Of a DNA stretch of 64,000 nucleotides, positions 2,877 to 55,486 are shown piece by piece. Source of the stretch: an uncultured Nitrosomonadales bacterium. Its GTDB lineage: Bacteria; Pseudomonadota; Gammaproteobacteria; Burkholderiales; Gallionellaceae. Positions within the stretch are counted from its first letter, which is position 1. Each line of letters opens with the position of its first letter. Both the position numbers and the translations under genes were made by a program. The notes under the pieces are model-generated. The model was not told where the DNA came from. It saw only the letters and a list, made by a program, of their open reading frames with translations, and ran no database searches. The stretch spans positions 6,813-70,812 of the forward strand of contig CAISHO010000084.1 in the NCBI GenBank assembly GCA_903885165.1. The letters are read 5' to 3'.

Positions 2877-4232
2877 CTAACCTGAAATAAGGCGATTAAT
2901 ATCGTTGTAGACGGCGAAAACCATCAACGTACCCAGCAAAGCAATTCCTATCTTCTGTCCGATTTCCCAAGCCTGTTCTGAGACCGGGCTACCTTTGACC
3001 AATTCAACGACATAATACAGCAAGTGACCACCATCCAATAAGGGAACAGGCAGCAAATTCAACACACCCAGACTGATGCTGATCAACGCAAGAAAACCCA
3101 GATAGGCTGCCCATCCCATGTGAGCCGACTGACCGGCGTAATCGGCGATGGTAATCGGCCCGCTGATATTTTTCATGGACACTTCACCCAGCACCATTTT
3201 TCCCAGCATTTTCAAGCTGATAACTGAAGTGTCCCAAGTCTTATTCAAGGCATGCATGAATGCATCAACCGGTGGGTAACTGACCTCAACCAGCAGCGCA
3301 TCAAGGACTGATTTATCCACTTTGGGTGCGGCACCGATTTTCCCAACAATTTTACCGGACTCAGTCACCCCTTGCGGAATCATCTTCAGACTCAACAGCT
3401 GATTTGCTCGCTGAATGTCCAGTTGCACATTGAGCCCCGGATGGCTGCGCACCACCTCAACTAAACCGCTCCAACTCGTTAAAGGGATGTCATCTGCACG
3501 CAGCACAAGATCGCCCTCCTGCAACTGCGCCATCTGCGCCACACCACCTTCGGTCAGCTTACCGATCACCGGCAAAATCACCGGTTGATACAGATGTAAT
3601 CCCAGTTTATCCATAAACGCGCCGTCCAGATCACTCGCCTCCAATTCACTCAGATCTAATGAGTGAAACAGCGTCGTACCGTGATCGCTGAGCGTTTCGA
3701 TCTTAACTTCTCCTTGTTTCAACGCCAGCGTGAGTAATGACCAGTGCAGTTCCTGCCAACTCGGGATCGCGACACCATCGATACTGACGATAGTCTCTCC
3801 CGCATGCAACAAGGCCGCAGAGGCAGGCGTACCCGTCGGCACTACACCCAATATCGGCTTTAAACCCGGCAGGCCGTGCATCAATAACACCCAATACAAC
3901 ACAATCGCCAGCAGAAAATTAGCGATGGGGCCGGCTGCCACGATAGCCATGCGCTGTAAGACCGGTTTGCGGTTAAAAGCCTGGTTGAGTTCTTCTGGCG
4001 GCACTTCACCTTCGCGCTCATCCAGCATCTTGACATATCCGCCCAGCGGAATGGCGGATATCACCCACTCGGTATCCGAATGAGCAAAGCGTTTAGTCAA
4101 CAGCGGCTTTCCAAATCCCAGCGAGAAACGCAAAACTTTAACCCCGCAGCGGCGCGCCACCCAATAGTGTCCATACTCATGGAACACTACCAGCAGGGCG
4201 ATTGCAACAATGAATGAAAATAATGTAATCAA
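2877..4232 (-). CDS. rseP: RIP metalloprotease RseP
   Basis: HEYGH zinc motif, PDZ domains, [12 protein letters not shown]. Confidence 0.97.
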
Positions 4233-10586: not shown

Positions 10587-11813
10587 TTAAATGAACCCAT
10601 ACACTTTTAAGGTCTGTTGCTTTCCCTTGGCTACCACCTGACGTGCTTCATGATCGGTGGTTATCAGCTTCAGTACACCGGTGGCGTCTTCTGATAACAA
10701 TAGCTCTCCCGGTAACGCTGCACTACAAATCCGCGCACAGGTGTTAACCGGATCTCCAGTAATTCTGATGGCCTTGGTGGTGTTTGAGCCGACTAGCCCT
10801 TCTATCACTTCACCGTAATGAACGCCTATCCCCACCGTCAAACCAGATTGTTTTAGTTGATCGATACTCATTTTCTTCAGCGCCTGAATGCGCTCGAGCA
10901 AATTGTTATCAGGTGCAAACCATGTCATCACCTCATCCCCCGTAAACTGGGGTTTTGCTCCTCCGGCATTGACGATGCATTGCTCGGCGGTTTCATAATA
11001 TTCGTTGAGCATGGCTATGATTTCCTGTAATTGATGTTTTTCGCTCCACTGAGTAAATCCACGAATGTCCATGAAAAGGATGATTTTCTGTGTACGTTGC
11101 CCTTGAATCGAGACCACCCCTTCCACACTTGACTCCGTAAAGGCTTCATCGAAAGACCAGCCGGTTAATTCATGTAAACGTTTTGCAATGTGCTGTAACA
11201 GCGCAAAAGACTGATTCCTGGATGCCTCACTCACCCCGATCAGAAAACCGAACATGAGTGAACTGGAAAGAATATAGGCATGGCCGGGCAGACTCCAATA
11301 CTCAATGAATGAGGCGTAAGTCAAAACTCTGGCAATTTCCGTCGAATACCATTCTGCAAAAAAATAGAGCGAAGGAAAGAGCGAGACACGCAAGAGGTTC
11401 ATCAGGATGGTCTGTAGATGGACAAGCGACTGCTGTCTTGAGCGCCAATAGGTGAGCAGTGCCAATAGAACAGAAAATGCCCAATAAATCAAATGGTAGG
11501 GCGAATTGATAAATTTAGCCCAGCCATCCAAAGCAACATCCACAAGACTATAGGCAACGGGTGCAATTAATAAGTACAAGGCGCTTTTCCAGGCTGAGTG
11601 ACGCCCTGAATACTCAATAACCCAAGTTTGCAAGACAGCGCTTATCAATAACAGGTAATTGGCCGGATCTGCCAGCGTTGCCCTTATTCCATCGTTTACA
11701 GCGATATAGGTAAGAAAGAAAATCTGGAATAAGCCGGAGTTTAAAAAAAACTCGCGAAGCATACGTTCTTTCGGTGTACCTTCTATACGCTGACTGATGG
11801 ATATTGTTTTCAT
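10587..11813 (-). CDS. Membrane-anchored class III nucleotide cyclase (adenylate/guanylate cyclase domain)
   Basis: Several N-terminal TM helices; LFMDIRGFT, QFTGDEVM, GIGVHYGEVIEG, GDPVNTCAR, KGKQQ. Confidence 0.88.
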   Translation of the reverse strand: MKTISISQRIEGTPKERMLREFFLNSGLFQIFFLTYIAVNDGIRATLADPANYLLLISAVLQTWVIEYSGRHSAWKSALYLLIAPVAYSLVDVALDGWAKFINSPYHLIYWAFSVLLALLTYWRSRQQSLVHLQTILMNLLRVSLFPSLYFFAEWYSTEIARVLTYASFIEYWSLPGHAYILSSSLMFGFLIGVSEASRNQSFALLQHIAKRLHELTGWSFDEAFTESSVEGVVSIQGQRTQKIILFMDIRGFTQWSEKHQLQEIIAMLNEYYETAEQCIVNAGGAKPQFTGDEVMTWFAPDNNLLERIQALKKMSIDQLKQSGLTVGIGVHYGEVIEGLVGSNTTKAIRITGDPVNTCARICSAALPGELLLSEDATGVLKLITTDHEARQVVAKGKQQTLKVYGFI

Positions 11814-12146
11814 TTTTTCTGATGATGACCGGATGAAATAATGGAGACGTTAAATTTCTTTTGTTAGTGAACGTGTGGTTTACGCGTGACGCATTAGCCA
11901 GTTTTACTACGCCCGTAGATAGTGATTCCCATTACCACGAACACAAATCCAGCAACATAAAGGCATCGCTGACATCAGCCCTCTGCTACTGGTGTTGATA
12001 GCCACTCCAAACAAGCTTTCAATTCTTCTGCGGCACCGCGCACAATAATGGCAGAAATATCCTGTTATACCACTACCTATTTCTCTGGATACCTAACGCG
12101 AAGTTCATCCAGATCAGGGTTTGTTTTTAGCCATTCCAGCGTATTT

Positions 12147-18066: not shown

Positions 18067-18143
<77 letters not shown>

Positions 18144-18186: not shown

Positions 18187-18612
18187 TTACACTTCCAGCA
18201 TAGCAATGATGTCTTTCAACTCACTCCTCAGCGCGGCCACATCCAGGCCAACAAACGCTTCAGCCCTAGTCAAAACATTCTCAACATAAACGGGAACGAT
18301 CGCTTGGCTTACAACTTCAGTTTCAAGCATACTGCTAGCAGTACGCGTATTTTCCAGACGGTTGCGCGCACCGCTAATCGTAAAACCCTGCTCGTAGAGC
18401 AATTCACGTATGCGACGAATCAAAACGACTTCATGATGCTGATAATAGCGGCGATTACCGCTCCGCTTAACCGGATTCAGCTGGGTAAACTCCTGCTCCC
18501 AATAGCGCAACACGTGCGCCTTCACCCCGCAAAGTTCACTCACTTCACCGATGGTGAAATAGCGCTTGGCGGGGATAGGAGGGAGTTCTGAGTTAGGCTT
18601 GTGGAGTTCCAT
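18187..18612 (-). CDS. MerR-family transcriptional regulator
   Basis: [32 protein letters not shown]; conserved ihfA neighbour. Confidence 0.93.
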
Positions 18613-27630: not shown

Positions 27631-27695
27631 AGCGCCACTCGCCTGCACTGCTATAAAATTACACTAATTTGATTATTTTTCTACAGGATACCCGC

Positions 27696-28718
27696 ATGAA
27701 ATACCTTAAAATTTCACTGAGCATCGCATTAGCCCTGACAACCATCACCTCCGGCAGTAACGCGTTCGCCTGCGCCGCTTGCGGCTGCACCCTATCCAAA
27801 GACTGGGAAACACAAGGCATCACCACCAAACCCGGCTTCTCTGCCGACTTATCGTACGATACGCTCAACCAGAACCAGCAACGTTATGGCTCAGGAAAAG
27901 CATCCGGCGCGCTGATCAACACACTGAACACCGCTGGTCAGGAAATTGAAGCCTTTACCAAGACACAAACCGTGACTGCTGCGCTCAACTATAGCGGTGA
28001 GACAGTCGGCGTGAGCATACAGATTCCTTTCGTCAACCGCACACACGGCACTTATGGCAATCCTGCGGGCGTAACCGGACCAGTGGGAACCAGTTATTCA
28101 ACTTCTAGCGACAATAGTCTGGGCGATGTGCGCATCATCGGCCGCTACACCGGCTTTTCTGCTGAAAAAACATCTGGCATCATAGCCGGCATCAAATTAC
28201 CTACCGGCAACACCGGCGCGACATTTACTGCGGGCACCAATGCAGGAGCCGCACTTGATTCCGGTTTGCAAATCGGCACAGGCTCTACCGACCTTATTTT
28301 AGGCGGATACACCTCCGGTTCGTTTAACAAATACGGCTGGTTTGCACAGGGCACCGTGCAACACGCGGTTGCAACCGATCTGTCAACGACTGGCACTTAC
28401 CGCCCGGGCGATGCCTACACATTAAACACCGGCCTGCGCTATGCCGAGTTCGGCGCAAAAATCACCCCCATGCTGCAACTGAACATCATCAAACGTCAGG
28501 CCGACACCGGCACCAGCGTTCCTGTTGATCAGTTGAATTTTTCCACGCCTATCAGCGGCGGCACACTGGCTTATCTGGCACCGGGCGCATCCATGCGTTT
28601 AGGCGGCGGCACCTCAGTCTACGGCTTCGTCCAACTGCCAGTTTACCAATCGGTCAACTCGTTGCAACTCGCCCCCCAATACACATTAACCCTGGGTGTG
28701 AGACAATCCTTCGAATAA
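27696..28718 (+). CDS. Predicted outer-membrane beta-barrel protein with N-terminal CxxCxC motif
   Basis: Sec signal (AFA|C), mature N-terminus CAACGC, alternating aromatic beta strands, C-terminal LGVRQSFE. Confidence 0.75.
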   Translation: MKYLKISLSIALALTTITSGSNAFACAACGCTLSKDWETQGITTKPGFSADLSYDTLNQNQQRYGSGKASGALINTLNTAGQEIEAFTKTQTVTAALNYSGETVGVSIQIPFVNRTHGTYGNPAGVTGPVGTSYSTSSDNSLGDVRIIGRYTGFSAEKTSGIIAGIKLPTGNTGATFTAGTNAGAALDSGLQIGTGSTDLILGGYTSGSFNKYGWFAQGTVQHAVATDLSTTGTYRPGDAYTLNTGLRYAEFGAKITPMLQLNIIKRQADTGTSVPVDQLNFSTPISGGTLAYLAPGASMRLGGGTSVYGFVQLPVYQSVNSLQLAPQYTLTLGVRQSFE

Positions 28719-28738: not shown

Positions 28739-29230
28739 GTGAATACAACGTATCGTTTCCTGTCCATCAAAGCAATGCTCTGCACCTTGCTGCTGAGTTT
28801 ATCCTTCAGTTGCGAGGCTGAAACCTGGTCGCTCAAGGATAAGGAAGGCGTGCGTTATACCTCAGCCGGATTGCAGGGGCGCTGGGTGTTGGTCAACTTC
28901 TGGGCACCCTGGTGCCCGACCTGTTTACAGGAAATTCCCGAACTGGATGCGCTCCAAGCGAAACACAAGGACGTACTAGTAATCGGCGTCGCGGTGATGT
29001 ATAAAAACCGCAAAGAAGTGATGGAAATCGTGCACAACCAACCGGTCACCTACCCGGTGGTATTCGGCTCTGAAGACACAGCCAGCGATTTCGGCGGGAT
29101 GCCGGGCCTACCGACGAGTTTCCTATATTCCCCGTCAGGGAAACTGGTTGGCCGCCATTCAGGGCCGCTCACCCAATACGACATCGAACAGGCCATAGAA
29201 CAAGGTTCCAAGGCGCTGTTTAGCCTTTAG
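28739..29230 (+). CDS. TlpA/ResA-like thioredoxin disulfide reductase
   Basis: LVNFWAPWCPTC, GLPTSFLY cis-Pro loop, N-terminal signal or anchor. Confidence 0.9.
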   Translation: MNTTYRFLSIKAMLCTLLLSLSFSCEAETWSLKDKEGVRYTSAGLQGRWVLVNFWAPWCPTCLQEIPELDALQAKHKDVLVIGVAVMYKNRKEVMEIVHNQPVTYPVVFGSEDTASDFGGMPGLPTSFLYSPSGKLVGRHSGPLTQYDIEQAIEQGSKALFSL

Positions 29231-29339: not shown

Positions 29340-30071
29340 ATGGAAAAAATTCGTCTCTCCAAGCGCATGTCTGAACTTGGCCTTTGCTCACGCCGCGAGG
29401 CTGATGTTTATATCGAAAAAGGCTGGGTGGATGTCGATGGTGAAACCGTCAGCCTGCTGGGCACCAAGGTTTATCCTAACCAGCAGATCACCTTACGCAC
29501 CGCAGCCGTTAACACCCAGCAGCAACGCGTGACTATTTTACTCAACAAACCCATCGCTTATGTATCGGGACAGGCTGAACACGGCTACAAACCAGCCTCC
29601 GCCCTGCTCGATGAATCCAGTCACTGGGCGGAAGACCCTTCCCCCATCAAATTTCATCGTAGTCAGATGATAGGCTTAGCGCCAGCAGGACGTCTGGATA
29701 TAGATTCGCAGGGTTTGCTGGTATTGACGCAAGACGGGCGCGTTGCAAAACAGTTGATAGGCGAAGATTCCAAGGTGGACAAGGAATATCTGGTGCGTGT
29801 GCAGGGCAAACTGGAAACCAGCGGACTGGCCCTACTCTGCCAGGGGCTCAAGCTCGACGGCGAATACCTGAAACTCGCCAAAGTCACCTGGCAGAACGAA
29901 GACCAGCTGCGCTTCGTGTTGCGCGAAGGTAAGAAACGCCAGATTCGCCGCATGTGTGAACTGGTGGGTTTGACCGTCACCGGTTTGAAACGCATCCGTA
30001 TCGGCAAGGTTAAATTGGGCCAGCTACCGGTCGGACAGTGGCGTTATCTGGGCGAGTTTGAGCAGTTCTAA
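29340..30071 (+). CDS. rRNA pseudouridine synthase (RsuA family, RluF-like)
   Basis: S4 domain (RLSKRMSELGLCSRREAD), GRLDIDSQGLL, EGKKRQIRRM. Confidence 0.92.
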   Translation: MEKIRLSKRMSELGLCSRREADVYIEKGWVDVDGETVSLLGTKVYPNQQITLRTAAVNTQQQRVTILLNKPIAYVSGQAEHGYKPASALLDESSHWAEDPSPIKFHRSQMIGLAPAGRLDIDSQGLLVLTQDGRVAKQLIGEDSKVDKEYLVRVQGKLETSGLALLCQGLKLDGEYLKLAKVTWQNEDQLRFVLREGKKRQIRRMCELVGLTVTGLKRIRIGKVKLGQLPVGQWRYLGEFEQF

Positions 30072-30109
30072 ACCCTCGCTTTTTAATTTTTTGTAGAGCC
30101 TGAAAAAGT

Positions 30110-30138
30110 TTGCATTAATAAGAATATTCTAATATACT
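30110..30138 (+). promoter_or_regulatory. Sigma70 promoter with palindromic operator in the spacer
   Basis: TTGCAT-17 bp-TATACT; spacer contains the perfect palindrome AGAATATTCT. Confidence 0.7.
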
Positions 30139-30142
30139 TAAA

Positions 30143-30223
30143 CTCTGTGATTATGAAGCCGACTCCCTGCGGCTTCTGAAGTATTCTCGCTGTTTGGGCA
30201 TCCGATTGGATGCCCATTTTTTT
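30143..30223 (+). ncRNA. Candidate trans-acting sRNA (~80 nt)
   Basis: Promoter, then hairpin gaagccg-actccctg-cggcttc, single-stranded tgaagtattctc, terminator tgggcatcc-gatt-ggatgccca-T7; no ORF; flanking genes converge. Confidence 0.7.
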
Positions 30224-30294
30224 GCTGAAAAAAGCCTTAAACCTTAAAAAGCTATTTTTCGCAGATTGTATGAATTAACCCGCTATCTTGATAG

Positions 30295-32379
30295 TCAATC
30301 TTTATTAATCAATAAGTTACAAAATACGATGTGCGTATCTGTAAGCGCACTTCCCACCGGATAACTGCGGCGACAACGATCCATCACCTCTACACAGCGC
30401 GGCGCAAAATGACAACCCGCTGGCGGATTCGCAGGCGACGGCAGATCACCCGCCAGCCGGACGTATTCACGACGATCTCCATCTATGCGAGGCACAGCCG
30501 ACAACAAAGCCTGCGTATACGGATGACGCGGCGAGCGCAACACCTCCGCCGTAGTGCCGCGCTCGACGATGCGCCCCAGATACATCACACACACTTCGTC
30601 TGCCAGATATTCCACCACCGCCAGATTATGCGTGATAAACAAATAGGAGAGATTCAGTTCCTGCTGCAACGATTTGAGCAAATTCAAAATTTGCGCCTGC
30701 ACCGACACATCGAGCGCACTGGTCGGTTCATCGCAGATCAATAACTGCGGCGACACGGCCAACGCGCGGGCTATCGCAATGCGTTGCCGCTGACCACCGG
30801 AAAATTCATGCGGGTAACGCCACTTGGCCTCGCGCGCCAGCCCCACTTTATCGAGCAGAATGTCGATCTGCTCCTGACGCGCTGCACTGTTGCCGCCGAT
30901 AGCCAGCGCACTCATCCCCTCTTCGAGGATTTCTGCAACGCGCATCTTAGGATTGAGCGAAGCATAAGGGTCCTGAAACACCATCTGCATCGAGGCACGC
31001 TGCACCGCACGGCCACCGACCAGTTCGAGTCCATCAAATTTCACACTGCCCGCCGTAGGTGGCACAAGTTGCAGCAACGCCTTACCCAGCGTAGTTTTCC
31101 CGCAACCGGACTCGCCCACCAGCGCCAGCGTGCGCCCCTTTGCGATTGTCAACGACACGCCGTCCACCGCCTTAACCTGCCCCGCTACGCGTTGCAAAAT
31201 TCCCTTGCGGATCGGAAAGTGAACTTGCAAATCGAAAACCTCAAGCAGCTTGTAGCCGGTAGCCGGTAGCCGGTAGCTCTCCCCTGCAAAATCTCTCTCT
31301 CCCTCTTGGTTTTTGCTCTTAGCTACGAGCAACAAGCTACCCGCTACCCGCTCGTCATACAGATGGCACCTGACGCCCCGCCCATCCGCCAACTGCGTCC
31401 AGACCGGCGACTGCTCCAGACACGGTGTAAAAGTCTGATCGCAACGCGGTGCAAAACGGCAGCCCGACGAAATACTGCCCAGCGGCGGGACGGAGCCCGG
31501 AATCGCCGCCAGCGGCTGATTACGACTGCCCTCGCGCGGTAAGGCGGCGAACAATTTTTGCGTGTAGGGATGCAAAGGCTGAGCAAATAACTGCGTACGC
31601 GATGCCGACTCGACGATCTGCCCTGCGTACATCACCCCCACCCTATGGGCCATTTCCGCCACCACGCCCAGATCGTGCGTAATCAGCAACAAGCCCATCC
31701 CGGTTTTTTCCTGCGTCTCGCGCAACAGATGCAACACCTGCGCCTGTATCGTCACATCCAGCGCTGTGGTCGGCTCATCGGCTACCAGTAACTGAGGCTC
31801 ACCCGCCAGCGCCATCGCGATCATCACGCGCTGTTTCATGCCGCCTGATAACTGAAACGGATATTCATCCACTCGCCGCACCGCATCTGGAATGCCAACC
31901 TGATCGAGCAAGTCTATGCAGCGCTGACTAACTCCTTCCCCTTGAAAGGAGGAAGGTTGGGATGGGGATAATTTTTGATGCAGCGCCAGAACCTCGGCGA
32001 TCTGCGCCCCAACAGTCATCACCGGATTCAGACTCAAGCCCGGCTCCTGAAAGATCATCGCCATCTTACCGCCGCGTATACCACGCATCTCACGCTCGGG
32101 CAAACCAAACAGCGAAATACCGTTCAATTCCACCCCGCCAGATTGATTGATCACCCCATCCGGCAACAACCGCATCAGCGAAAGCGCAGTCATAGATTTG
32201 CCGCAACCGGATTCACCCAGCAACGCAAAGGTCTGCCCCGCTAAGATCTCGAACGAGATACCATCCACGATGGCCATGCCATTGTGTAAGCCGGTAACGA
32301 GATTGCTGACCACAAGCAGATGGGCGCGCCCGTTCGAGGCAGATTCGATTACTGGGGTGTTTTCAGGTTTATTGGTCAT
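30295..32379 (-). CDS. Fused two-domain dipeptide/oligopeptide ABC transporter ATPase
   Basis: Two GESGCGK Walker A motifs, LSGGMKQR and FSGGQRQR signatures, C-terminal GC.FAPRC Fe-S domains. Confidence 0.93.
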   Translation of the reverse strand: MTNKPENTPVIESASNGRAHLLVVSNLVTGLHNGMAIVDGISFEILAGQTFALLGESGCGKSMTALSLMRLLPDGVINQSGGVELNGISLFGLPEREMRGIRGGKMAMIFQEPGLSLNPVMTVGAQIAEVLALHQKLSPSQPSSFQGEGVSQRCIDLLDQVGIPDAVRRVDEYPFQLSGGMKQRVMIAMALAGEPQLLVADEPTTALDVTIQAQVLHLLRETQEKTGMGLLLITHDLGVVAEMAHRVGVMYAGQIVESASRTQLFAQPLHPYTQKLFAALPREGSRNQPLAAIPGSVPPLGSISSGCRFAPRCDQTFTPCLEQSPVWTQLADGRGVRCHLYDERVAGSLLLVAKSKNQEGERDFAGESYRLPATGYKLLEVFDLQVHFPIRKGILQRVAGQVKAVDGVSLTIAKGRTLALVGESGCGKTTLGKALLQLVPPTAGSVKFDGLELVGGRAVQRASMQMVFQDPYASLNPKMRVAEILEEGMSALAIGGNSAARQEQIDILLDKVGLAREAKWRYPHEFSGGQRQRIAIARALAVSPQLLICDEPTSALDVSVQAQILNLLKSLQQELNLSYLFITHNLAVVEYLADEVCVMYLGRIVERGTTAEVLRSPRHPYTQALLSAVPRIDGDRREYVRLAGDLPSPANPPAGCHFAPRCVEVMDRCRRSYPVGSALTDTHIVFCNLLINKD
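31246..31354. repeat. Oppositely oriented heptamer arrays inside the ABC ATPase linker
   Basis: gtagccg x3 and gctaccc x2, translated in frame (ESYRLPATGYKL). Confidence 0.7.
31932..31968 (-). repeat. CCCC-AACC-TTCC...GGGGAAGG palindromic element, in frame in the ABC ATPase
   Basis: Minus strand ccccatcccaaccttcctcctttcaaggggaaggag encodes SPSQPSSFQGEG. Confidence 0.6.
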
Positions 32380-52329: not shown

Positions 52330-52511
52330 AATATAAATTCAGAATTTCGGGATGAAGTACCAGGAGCCGCGCAGAGAATGACGAGACATACCGCAAAGGT
52401 AGGCGAGGAATGAGCGAGCACGGGACGCAGGGAGCGGAAGGGTCGATGCGTAAGAATCGGGGCACCCCCGGCCTACCCCTTGCGGGTGAATTCGCCCGAA
52501 AAATGGATTTT

Positions 52512-53327
52512 ATGCCTGTTGAGCATTACGAGAACTTCCCGGTCGCATCCATCCTGATGCCCAAACGGCTGCGTCGTCCGGTGGCGGCGATTTATCATTT
52601 CGCAAGAGCTGCTGACGATATTGCCGACGAGGGAGATTTATCCGATACCGAGCGGTTGCAAGGGCTGGCTGCATTTCGCGAAGAGTTAAACCGCATCAGC
52701 CAAAACGAAGCGCCGGCAACACCCTTGTTTCAAAATCTGCAAGCCACCATCCGGCAGTATGAATTACCGTTGCAGCCGCACTACGATTTGCTCGATGCCT
52801 TCTCGCAGGATGTCGTCCAGAAACGCTACAATAACTACGCCGATCTGCTCGACTACTGCCGTCGCTCCGCCAATCCGGTAGGCATACTGATGCTGCACCT
52901 GTACGGCGAAGCGACACCGGTCAACATCGATTATTCGGATGCGATCTGCACCAGCTTGCAGTTAATCAATTTCTGGCAGGATGTCGCCAAGGATATCGCC
53001 ATCGGGCGCATCTACCTGCCGCTGGACGAGATGGCAAAGTTCGGCGTCACCTCCTCCCAGATTGAACAGCAACTCTGCGATGACAACTGGCGCCGTCTGA
53101 TGCAGTTTCAGGTGACCCGTGCCCGCGCACTGATGCTGCAAGGCGCGCCATTAGGCAGCATACTCACTGGGCGCATCGGACTCGAAATGCGTATGATCAT
53201 CGCCGGCGGATTACGCATCCTGGATAAGATTGAAAAGGTGCAATTCGATGTTTATCGCCGCCGCCCGGTGCTAGGCCCGCTCGACTGGGTTATCATGCTG
53301 GCCAAATCCGCACCCCACTCGTACTAA
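52512..53327 (+). CDS. hpnC: Squalene synthase HpnC
   Basis: HYENFPVAS, ARAADDIADEG, RRSANPVG, NFWQDV; ATG 52512 or 52503 preferred over 52410. Confidence 0.95.
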   Translation: MPVEHYENFPVASILMPKRLRRPVAAIYHFARAADDIADEGDLSDTERLQGLAAFREELNRISQNEAPATPLFQNLQATIRQYELPLQPHYDLLDAFSQDVVQKRYNNYADLLDYCRRSANPVGILMLHLYGEATPVNIDYSDAICTSLQLINFWQDVAKDIAIGRIYLPLDEMAKFGVTSSQIEQQLCDDNWRRLMQFQVTRARALMLQGAPLGSILTGRIGLEMRMIIAGGLRILDKIEKVQFDVYRRRPVLGPLDWVIMLAKSAPHSY

Positions 53328-53328
53328 C

Positions 53329-54162
53329 ATGACTCCAGACCAATATTGCCAGGAAAAAGCCGCTGCCAGCGGTTCCAGTTTTTACTACAGCTTTATGTTC
53401 CTCCCCAAAGAAAAGCGCCGCGCGATCATCGCGCTGTACGCCTTCTGCCGCGAGGTGGACGACGTGGTGGATGAATGCACCGACGAACAGGTCGCCCGCA
53501 CCACGCTCAACTGGTGGCGCGGTCAGGTGGCTGAGATCTACGGCGGCAAACCGCAACATCCGGTCGCCATCGCGCTGATTCCTGTCGTTGTAAAATTCAA
53601 CATGGCGCAGGAACTGCTGCTTGAGATCATCGACGGCATGGAGATGGATCTGGATCAGCCGCGCTACAACGATTTCAAATCGCTGCAACTGTATTGCTAC
53701 CGCGTCGCCTCGGTGGTCGGTCTGTTGTCGGTGGAGATTTTCGGCTACACCGATCGTCAGACACTCAAATATGCTCACGACTTAGGCATCGCCTTTCAGC
53801 TCACCAACATCATCCGCGATATCGGCGAAGACGCCAGACGCAACCGCATCTATCTGCCCATGGACGAGATGCAGCAGTTCGGCGTCACAGCAGCGGACAT
53901 CCTCAATGCGAATGAGACCGAAAATTTCCATAAACTCATGGAATTCCAGATCGAACGCGCGGAAGGTTTTTACCAGCAGGCACTCGCACAATTGCCACCC
54001 GTCGACCGTAAAAACCAGCGCACAGGCCTAATCATGGCGGCGATCTATCGCGCCACACTGGATGAAGTCAAAGCTTCCGGTTGCCATGTCTTAAAGGAGC
54101 GCATCTCCCTCACCCCGCTGCGTAAACTGTGGCTGGCATGGACGACCTGGGTCAAATCCTAG
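53329..54162 (+). CDS. hpnD: Presqualene diphosphate synthase HpnD
   Basis: SGSSFYYSF, FCREVDDVVD, TNIIRDIGEDA. Confidence 0.95.
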   Translation: MTPDQYCQEKAAASGSSFYYSFMFLPKEKRRAIIALYAFCREVDDVVDECTDEQVARTTLNWWRGQVAEIYGGKPQHPVAIALIPVVVKFNMAQELLLEIIDGMEMDLDQPRYNDFKSLQLYCYRVASVVGLLSVEIFGYTDRQTLKYAHDLGIAFQLTNIIRDIGEDARRNRIYLPMDEMQQFGVTAADILNANETENFHKLMEFQIERAEGFYQQALAQLPPVDRKNQRTGLIMAAIYRATLDEVKASGCHVLKERISLTPLRKLWLAWTTWVKS

Positions 54163-54169
54163 CAAAACA

Positions 54170-55486
54170 ATGACTAAAGGCTTTTTCAATGCCGCCGTGA
54201 TCGGTGGTGGTTACGCAGGGATGGCGGCCGCCGCCCGGCTTGCCGAACTGGACATTCCGGTGACCGTGTTCGAGAGTGCAAGACAACTGGGTGGTCGGGC
54301 GCGCGGCGTCGGCTACGAGAATACTCAGCTCGATAACGGCCAGCATCTCTTGCTAGGCTGCTATCACCAGACTCTGGCGCTGATCGAACAGGTCGGCGGC
54401 AATGTCACAGAGGATTTTTTACACCTGCCGCTGCAACTGGAACTGCACGGTCATTTTTCCCTGAAAGTCCCCCGCCTGCCCGCGCCATTTCATCTATTGT
54501 TCGCACTGTTGTTCGCACACGGTTTGAGCTTTGCCGAACGATTGAGCGCTGCGCGCTTCATGCAGGCAATGAAAAATAATAATTTCAAAATAATCAAAGA
54601 TATAAGCGTCAGATCGCTATTATCAGAACACAAGCAAAGTCCGGCACTGATCCAGAAACTTTGGGAACCGCTGTGTATCGCGGCGCTCAACACCCCGCTC
54701 CGTATCGCATCCGGCCAGGTATTGCTGAATGTTTTAAGGGATGCATTGAATCAGACGCGTTCCGACAGCGACATGCTGCTGCCGCGCATTAATTTCACCG
54801 CACTGTTTCCCGCCCGTGCCGAAAAATATATAAAGCGACGTGGCGGACATGTGTTGACCTCCTGTGGCGTAGAGCAACTGCTACCCCACGAACACGGTTT
54901 CGAGATCATCACCAAACGCGGCAGCCTGTTCTTCAGCCACGTGATCTGCGCGACCCCGCCGGTCATCACGGCCAAACTTCTGCGCCCGTATCCAGCGCTC
55001 GCGCCCGTCGTCGCACAAATCGATGCGCTGCAACATCAGCCCATCTATACCGTGTATCTGCAATATCCGGCATCTGTCCGTCTGCCTCACCCCATGCTGG
55101 GCTTGCATCAACGCTATAGTCAGTGGCTGTTCGACAAGGGGCAGATCGCAGGACAAGACGGACTGATCGCGGCAGTCATCAGCGCGGAAGGCTTGCATCA
55201 GGAATTATCTCAAGATGAACTGGCGCAAAGAGTGATCGCCGAATTAAAGGATGAATTCGGCTTCAGCGAAGCCCCCCGCTGGTACAAAGTCATCGCGGAA
55301 AAACGTGCGACCTTTGCCTGCACACCAGACCTTAACCGCCCGGCACAACAAACGCCACGCGCCAATCTATTGCTCGCGGGCGATTACACCAAAGGCGATT
55401 ACCCAGCGACACTAGAAGGTGCCGTGCAAAGCGGCATCCACTGCGCCGAGATCATCGAGCAAGACGCTATTTCTAACTCACACTAG
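54170..55486 (+). CDS. hpnE: Hydroxysqualene dehydroxylase HpnE
   Basis: GGGYAGMAAA, LGGRAR, DNGQHLLLGCY, YPATLEGAVQSG. Confidence 0.95.
   Translation: MTKGFFNAAVIGGGYAGMAAAARLAELDIPVTVFESARQLGGRARGVGYENTQLDNGQHLLLGCYHQTLALIEQVGGNVTEDFLHLPLQLELHGHFSLKVPRLPAPFHLLFALLFAHGLSFAERLSAARFMQAMKNNNFKIIKDISVRSLLSEHKQSPALIQKLWEPLCIAALNTPLRIASGQVLLNVLRDALNQTRSDSDMLLPRINFTALFPARAEKYIKRRGGHVLTSCGVEQLLPHEHGFEIITKRGSLFFSHVICATPPVITAKLLRPYPALAPVVAQIDALQHQPIYTVYLQYPASVRLPHPMLGLHQRYSQWLFDKGQIAGQDGLIAAVISAEGLHQELSQDELAQRVIAELKDEFGFSEAPRWYKVIAEKRATFACTPDLNRPAQQTPRANLLLAGDYTKGDYPATLEGAVQSGIHCAEIIEQDAISNSH

Follow-up and report, generated by a model that had tools for sequence, protein, structure and literature searches.

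In a Gallionella genome, the short spacer that separates a gene for a pseudouridine synthase from a converging gene for an ABC ATPase holds a credible candidate for a small RNA (sRNA) gene, of narrow distribution and outside every described family. It lies at positions 30110 to 30223 of the window, by which we mean the whole 64-kb stretch of DNA analyzed. The unit has the anatomy of a transcription unit, a stable fold and the signature of purifying selection acting module by module. We give a probability of about 0.5 to the reading in which a narrow Gallionella clade has here a gene for a small RNA that is transcribed independently and would act in trans.

Genomic setting and anatomy of the unit

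The window covers a housekeeping region of the Gallionella genome, with bamA, skp, rseP, dxr, frr, pyrH, tsf, rpsB, pheST, infC, thrS, lnt, purL and squalene synthase genes of the hopanoid type. Two squalene/phytoene-synthase-family genes followed by a flavin amine-oxidase gene (52410 to 55486, plus strand) form an hpnCDE-like squalene synthesis cluster. When the whole window was searched against all 4227 Rfam families (cmscan, gathering score), the only match was a tRNA gene elsewhere (18070 to 18143, minus strand), which adjoins a MerR-family regulator gene (18187 to 18612); the element itself was unmatched. A permissive scan of 29900 to 30450 (E ≤ 10) gave chance matches to unrelated families only.

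The gene upstream of the unit (29340 to 30071, plus strand) encodes an RluF/RsuA-type pseudouridine synthase, as judged by its domain matches (S4 and PseudoU_synth_2) and the names of its homologues, which JGI calls “23S rRNA pseudouridine2604 synthase,” i.e., RluF. Further upstream are genes for a 349-residue protein that has no Pfam match and carries an N-terminal CAACGC motif (27669 to 28718, plus strand) and for a TlpA-like redoxin (28739 to 29230, plus strand), a pair also seen ahead of rluF at many Gallionellaceae loci. On the other side, a fused double ABC ATPase gene (two ABC_tran and two oligo_HPY domains; 30295 to 32379, minus strand) converges on rluF and leaves an intergenic spacer of 223 nt. 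This ATPase is of the oligopeptide/nickel type, and neither a permease nor a binding-protein gene is found beside it.

A sequence-only reading of this DNA had described an ORF-free unit between two convergent genes, made up of a promoter, a stem with a C-rich loop, an unpaired tract and a terminator, and all of these parts were recovered at the positions given for them. After 38 nt of nonconserved sequence behind the rluF stop codon (30072 to 30109) comes a predicted sigma-70 promoter (30110 to 30138, plus strand), with TTGCAT at 30110 to 30115, a 17-nt spacer and TATACT at 30133 to 30138. It contains an imperfect dyad, ATAAGAAT/ATTCTAAT (30118 to 30133), in which 7 of the 8 pairs are formed and which has a perfect core, AGAATATTCT, at 30121 to 30130. 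The start-site region and 5' leader (30139 to 30154) evolve fast, and transcription would start near 30145. Hairpin 1 (30155 to 30176) has a 7-bp stem, GAAGCCG and CGGCUUC, that closes the C-rich loop ACUCCCUG (30162 to 30169). It is followed by a single-stranded linker, UGAAGUAUUCUCGCUGUU (30177 to 30194), which includes the unpaired tract UGAAGUAUUCUC from 30177 and has two invariant parts, a core of AUUCUC and the UGUUU that immediately precedes the terminator. The intrinsic terminator, UGGGCAUCC-GAUU-GGAUGCCCA plus T7 (30195 to 30223), consists of a 9-bp stem (30195 to 30216) with a GAUU loop and a run of seven U residues (30217 to 30223). From there to the stop codon of the ABC gene, the sequence (30224 to 30294) is again nonconserved.

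As a single sequence, the unit has both a strong fold and a strong terminator. The 80-nt RNA has a predicted folding energy of −30.5 kcal/mol (z = −5.3), and none of 200 shuffled sequences folded as well. The same two hairpins are predicted for the RNAs of the two related lineages in which we found the element. These are represented by L001, a Gallionella MAG (JBAZVL01) whose RluF is 98% identical to that of the window, and by L096. A pairing between leader and linker was considered and discarded; its register varies between lineages and it is missing in L096. By consensus the promoter is weak, TTGCAT agreeing with TTGACA at three of six positions and the two hexamers together at 8 of 12. A promoter scanner run over 6 kb found five such sites against 3.8 expected from shuffled sequence, i.e., the chance level, and did not call the site in L001 or L096.

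The unit is effectively free of open reading frames. An 8-codon frame from the ATG at 30153 (30153 to 30179) has ACG for its start codon in L096 and has lost its stop in L001. A 44-codon frame on the minus strand is only 25 codons long in L001, and nearly all the changes in it are nonsynonymous. Since the small frames are not kept on either strand, the unit appears to be noncoding.

Module-wise conservation

We compared the unit segment by segment, with boundaries that had been set beforehand from the annotation of the window alone. The comparison rests on three independent sequences, two of which (L001 and L096) are closely related. From the rluF stop to the −35 hexamer, 32 of the 45 alignment columns differ between the window and L001, and likewise between the window and L096. 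The promoter then shows a single difference in 29 positions in either comparison, the leader 6 in 16, hairpin 1 one (L001) or none (L096) in 22, the linker 4 or 3 in 18, and the terminator with its U7 one in 29. In the downstream spacer, 75 (L001) or 69 (L096) of the 99 columns differ. For reference, the same pairs differ at 21 to 27% of the 4-fold degenerate sites of rluF and at 43 to 46% of those of the ABC gene. Promoter, hairpin 1 and terminator jointly differ at 2 to 3 of 80 positions, which has a binomial probability of at most 8 × 10^−6 even at the lowest neutral rate; for the promoter alone the value is at most 8 × 10^−3. In pairwise alignments, identity begins at the first T of TTGCAT and stops after the U-run, and both flanks are unalignable. 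This confinement between the −35 hexamer and the U-run supports a discrete, selected transcription unit, and to that extent the earlier proposal of an sRNA gene is probably right; the operator, Fur and iron-sparing parts of it find no support (see below).

The changes that did occur within the unit are few. Both promoter hexamers and their 17-nt spacing, for all their modest agreement with the consensus, are invariant in the three lineages, and so is the loop ACUCCCUG. The sole change in hairpin 1 is an A-to-G substitution in L001 that yields a G·U pair. The terminator stem is the same in L001 and L096 as in the window, and the relatives have one change in its loop. In L095, a contig from the species of the window, C30199T falls within the terminator stem and pairing is again kept as G·U. 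Within the rluF-ABC spacer, the other contigs of this species (L086 and L092 to L094) differ from the window only by T30244A, which lies outside the element and is found in L095 as well. Thus, both stem changes preserve pairing, but no compensatory double change was seen in the three variants, which are too few for a meaningful covariation test; it is conservation and folding energy that support the two-hairpin structure.

The leader behaves differently from its neighbors. Between L001 (4807 to 4820) and L096 (minus strand, about 3495 to 3510), 7 of its 16 columns differ, and these two lineages are only 8 to 11% apart at 4-fold degenerate sites, which makes the leader a local hot spot of change beside invariant modules. 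A variable 5' leader next to an invariant loop indicates that the functional surface would be the loop and not the 5' end.

A terminator in common with rluF

It should be noted that part of this conservation would be expected without any sRNA. Downstream of the rluF stop, the window, L001 and L096 alike have a single plus-strand terminator ahead of the one that belongs to the ABC gene, namely that of the unit, and no intrinsic terminator occurs before 30195. Since rluF has no terminator of its own, the element also forms the 3' end of its mRNA, and the terminator would be kept anyway for that reason. It is therefore possible, if on the whole unlikely, that the unit does no more than provide rluF with a 3' untranslated region and a terminator; the hairpins would then stabilize or end the mRNA and the promoter-like block would be silent, with no function in trans. 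The weak consensus match of the promoter fits this explanation, as does the situation in other Gallionellaceae, where rluF is often trailed directly by a terminator, 5 to 30 nt past its stop. However, this same short distance means that the extra 125 nt found here are not needed for termination. Nor does a mere 3' end explain why 28 of 29 promoter positions are kept while the 38 to 45 nt just past the stop codon are unalignable. The sequence-only reading had itself foreseen that the hairpin could act only as the terminator of the upstream gene. It is indeed the sole intrinsic terminator downstream of rluF, but the promoter block is conserved too.

The convergent arrangement offers another explanation, in which the unit is a cis element, either antisense to the read-through 3' end of the ABC transcript or an insulator hairpin that works in both directions. 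In the window, there is no good minus-strand terminator between the ABC stop (30295) and the element, so that the ABC transcript could enter it. However, a separate terminator of the ABC gene (CACCCC..GGGGTG) is kept in L001 and L096, between the ABC stop and the element, and the overlap is thus not a conserved feature. Besides, read on the minus strand, the hairpin at 30195 to 30216 is followed by AAACAG and not by a U-run. We consider a role of this kind quite improbable.

Distribution and synteny

Besides the Gallionella species of the window, only the two related lineages (L001 and L096 to L098) were found to carry the element. A synteny search of species-representative genomes through RluF gave 80 Gallionellaceae loci, with the element in L001 alone; it was not found 3' of rluF in the other 79, where the genes downstream are unrelated. 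An RluF homologue with 93% identity (P0121) lacked it as well. We scanned metagenomes with the pattern CGACTCCCTGCG-N5-15-GTATTCTC, which returned one true match (L086, of the window's species) and seven chance matches. This pattern is overly strict and misses the variant found in L096 and the JGI contig L097 (GCATTCTC), so that the scan does not establish absence elsewhere. Contigs with homologues of the ABC ATPase added further members of the same species (L092 to L095), and the third lineage (L096 to L098) was reached through the ABC homologue P0008, with the layout of rluF, element and ABC gene kept. The three variants were combined into a covariance model (R1), which detected no further member in 736 kb of loci, the scope of this search being the 8.7-kb syntenic loci.

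On the ABC side, the element was not found beside the closer relatives of the ATPase, P0003, P0004 and P0005 (85 to 88% identity; L089 to L091), in which the ABC gene is paired with an S8 peptidase gene and joined to it by a plain two-way terminator. For P0007, P0009, P0010, P0016 and most other relatives, the genes that come after the ABC gene are DUF883, a holin-like gene and YqjK. We also considered a repeat or mobile element of the REP or MITE kind. The element is single copy in the 64-kb window, had one true contig match in the metagenomes and was unmatched in blastn searches against plasmids and phages, and this candidate was rejected. As far as the search reached, only a narrow clade thus has the element, and its site is a synteny breakpoint.

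The two flanks of the spacer have different relationships. RluF is 98% identical between the window and L001 or L096, and the ABC ATPase across the spacer only 79%; the ABC relatives at 85 to 88% identity occupy a different neighborhood. At the level of these comparisons, the rluF-ABC spacer appears to be a breakpoint of both synteny and recombination. A 63-residue fragment of a phage integrase (1052 to 1243 in L096) immediately precedes the ABC gene in L096, L097 and L098, which hints at a past insertion on that side of the locus.

A recombination boundary within the spacer, as suggested by the 98 and 79% identities, raises the question of whether the conservation is only apparent. The neighborhood of rluF could have been exchanged recently, leaving the unit as a neutral relic with a function limited to termination. 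Against this, 3 differences in 80 positions stand out even from the 4-fold rate of rluF itself (21%; P = 8 × 10^−6), and a transferred tract would not hold 38 to 45 unalignable nucleotides between rluF and the conserved block. A relic seems improbable to us.

Promoter dyad and iron

The sequence-only reading had seen in the promoter spacer an AT-rich palindrome that would act as an operator, and had proposed a candidate iron-sparing sRNA under the control of Fur or another repressor. A 16-nt dyad does exist at 30118 to 30133, but the 18-mer quoted as the palindrome is not symmetric, and a dyad of this quality appears in 5 to 10% of composition-matched shuffles of the 29-nt promoter, which is the chance level. 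The relatives do not preserve it. The corresponding sequence is AGAATATCCT in L001 (T30128C) and AGAATACTCT in L096 (T30127C), and each substitution breaks a different central pair, with no compensating change in the left arm; the perfect core is found in the window only. The best match of the promoter to the Fur box GATAATGATAATCATTATC is 10 of 19 positions, and 1278 position-strands of the window score as well. A 7-1-7 variant of the Fur box matches at 9 of 14 positions, and scores for the Zur, Irr ICE box and ARG box consensus sequences were at background level. A dyad broken in the relatives and a Fur score at background lend no support to Fur or to any repressor binding the dyad, which is probably not an operator.

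The best Fur-box-like site of the whole window lies elsewhere. It is GGTAATGGGAATCACTATC (11918 to 11936, minus strand), with 15 of 19 positions matched, about 105 nt upstream of a gene with an adenylate/guanylate-cyclase domain (10587 to 11813, minus strand), and no iron-related gene is nearby.

Other evidence of a connection with iron was likewise negative. The Rfam models of RyhB, PrrF and NrrF gave no match between 29900 and 30450 even at E ≤ 10, no iron-related genes were found near the element, and sdh, acn and sodB are not in the 64-kb window. An RNA of the RyhB/PrrF/NrrF/BrrF type, Fur repressed through an operator in the promoter spacer, would fit the generic layout, in which the promoter spacer of a small RNA gene contains a dyad, and a host family that, by the titles of its records, consists of iron oxidizers. 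Nevertheless, with a Fur box no better than background, a dyad at chance level that is broken differently in each relative, iron sRNA families unmatched and no iron-related genes nearby, we regard it as extremely improbable. Control of the unit by Fur or iron is not indicated.

Proposed mode of action and comparison with known sRNAs

If the unit is indeed an independently transcribed sRNA gene, the sigma-70-type promoter TTGCAT-17-TATACT would drive transcription from near 30145 and yield an RNA of some 79 nt. From 5' to 3', this RNA would carry the variable leader, hairpin 1 presenting ACUCCCUG, the AU/U-rich single-stranded linker and the strong terminator with its U7-8. The same sequence would also end the rluF transcripts, which would reach 30223. 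We infer that, most likely, the C-rich loop would serve as the seed for base pairing in trans, its CUCCC pairing with Shine-Dalgarno-like GGGAG or GGAG sequences, and that such pairing would alter the translation or stability of target mRNAs. The linker, the terminator hairpin and the U-tail may constitute a chaperone-binding 3' module, presumably for Hfq. Such a 3' end, a U7-8 terminator with UGUUU and a second hairpin ahead of it, agrees with the 3' module that chaperone-dependent sRNAs carry. The generic features of such modules are found here, i.e., U7 (U8 in L096), UGUUU before the terminator and hairpin 1 upstream, and they are conserved. The linker (30177 to 30194) could possibly be an Hfq-contact site or a second pairing site. 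The hfq gene is not in the 64-kb window.

We searched the 64-kb window for targets through duplex energies, seed complements and the longest complementarity near 50 gene starts, and found none beyond chance; within this search, duplex energies were uninformative, as were counts of Shine-Dalgarno motifs at mechanically defined ORF starts.

Several known sRNAs resemble the candidate in part. RsaE/RoxS of Firmicutes and AbcR1/2 of Rhizobiales pair with ribosome-binding sites through C-rich loops. By analogy, the candidate would be akin to them as a short RNA with an intrinsic terminator and a C-rich apical loop whose CUCCC is the complement of a GGAG/GGGAG Shine-Dalgarno core; like AbcR, it adjoins an ABC transporter gene. 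Unlike these RNAs, it has one C-rich loop and not two or more, belongs to another host clade and is unmatched by any Rfam model. The sRNAs of the DapZ/MicL type have their own promoter and a terminator in common with the upstream mRNA. The element likewise uses the only terminator of the upstream gene and has a promoter-like block just upstream, but its predicted promoter lies past the stop codon and not inside the coding sequence. With RyhB, PrrF, NrrF and BrrF, it has in common the size class, the intrinsic terminator and the status of a free-standing intergenic gene, and differs from them in having no Fur box, no conserved dyad, no Rfam match and no iron context in the window. Finally, the betaproteobacterial toxic small RNA family, to which a link had been thought worth checking, also has a betaproteobacterial host and C-rich motifs; however, its covariance model did not match the element at E ≤ 10 over 29900 to 30450.

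Origin and significance

Hairpin 1 (30155 to 30176) and the two-way terminator on the ABC side of the relatives (AAAAGCCACCCTGCGGGGTGGCTTTTTT) have AAGCC..AC..CCCTGCGG in common, as compared at L090 (5059 to 5140), L089 (4264 to 4306) and L096 (3345 to 3359). This likeness could go back to the duplication of a terminator or be fortuitous. Tentatively, we suggest that the unit may be a young regulatory RNA gene, born at the synteny breakpoint in one Gallionella clade, possibly from a duplicated terminator hairpin, and acting through its invariant anti-Shine-Dalgarno loop; we see this as a conjecture with more chances against it than for it.

We found no published description of small RNAs in Gallionellaceae. 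The more exciting claim, a Fur-controlled iron-sparing RNA in an Fe(II) oxidizer, is unsupported. The practical weight of the candidate is limited, as its hosts are known from metagenome assemblies only and the family consists of three sequence variants. Its defined parts make it a concrete target for RNA-seq or Northern blotting in enrichments of iron oxidizers. As it is narrowly distributed and sits at a rearrangement junction, it may also exemplify the recent origin of an sRNA, and if the young-gene reading is true, it would represent the datable birth of an sRNA in an uncultured lineage of iron oxidizers.
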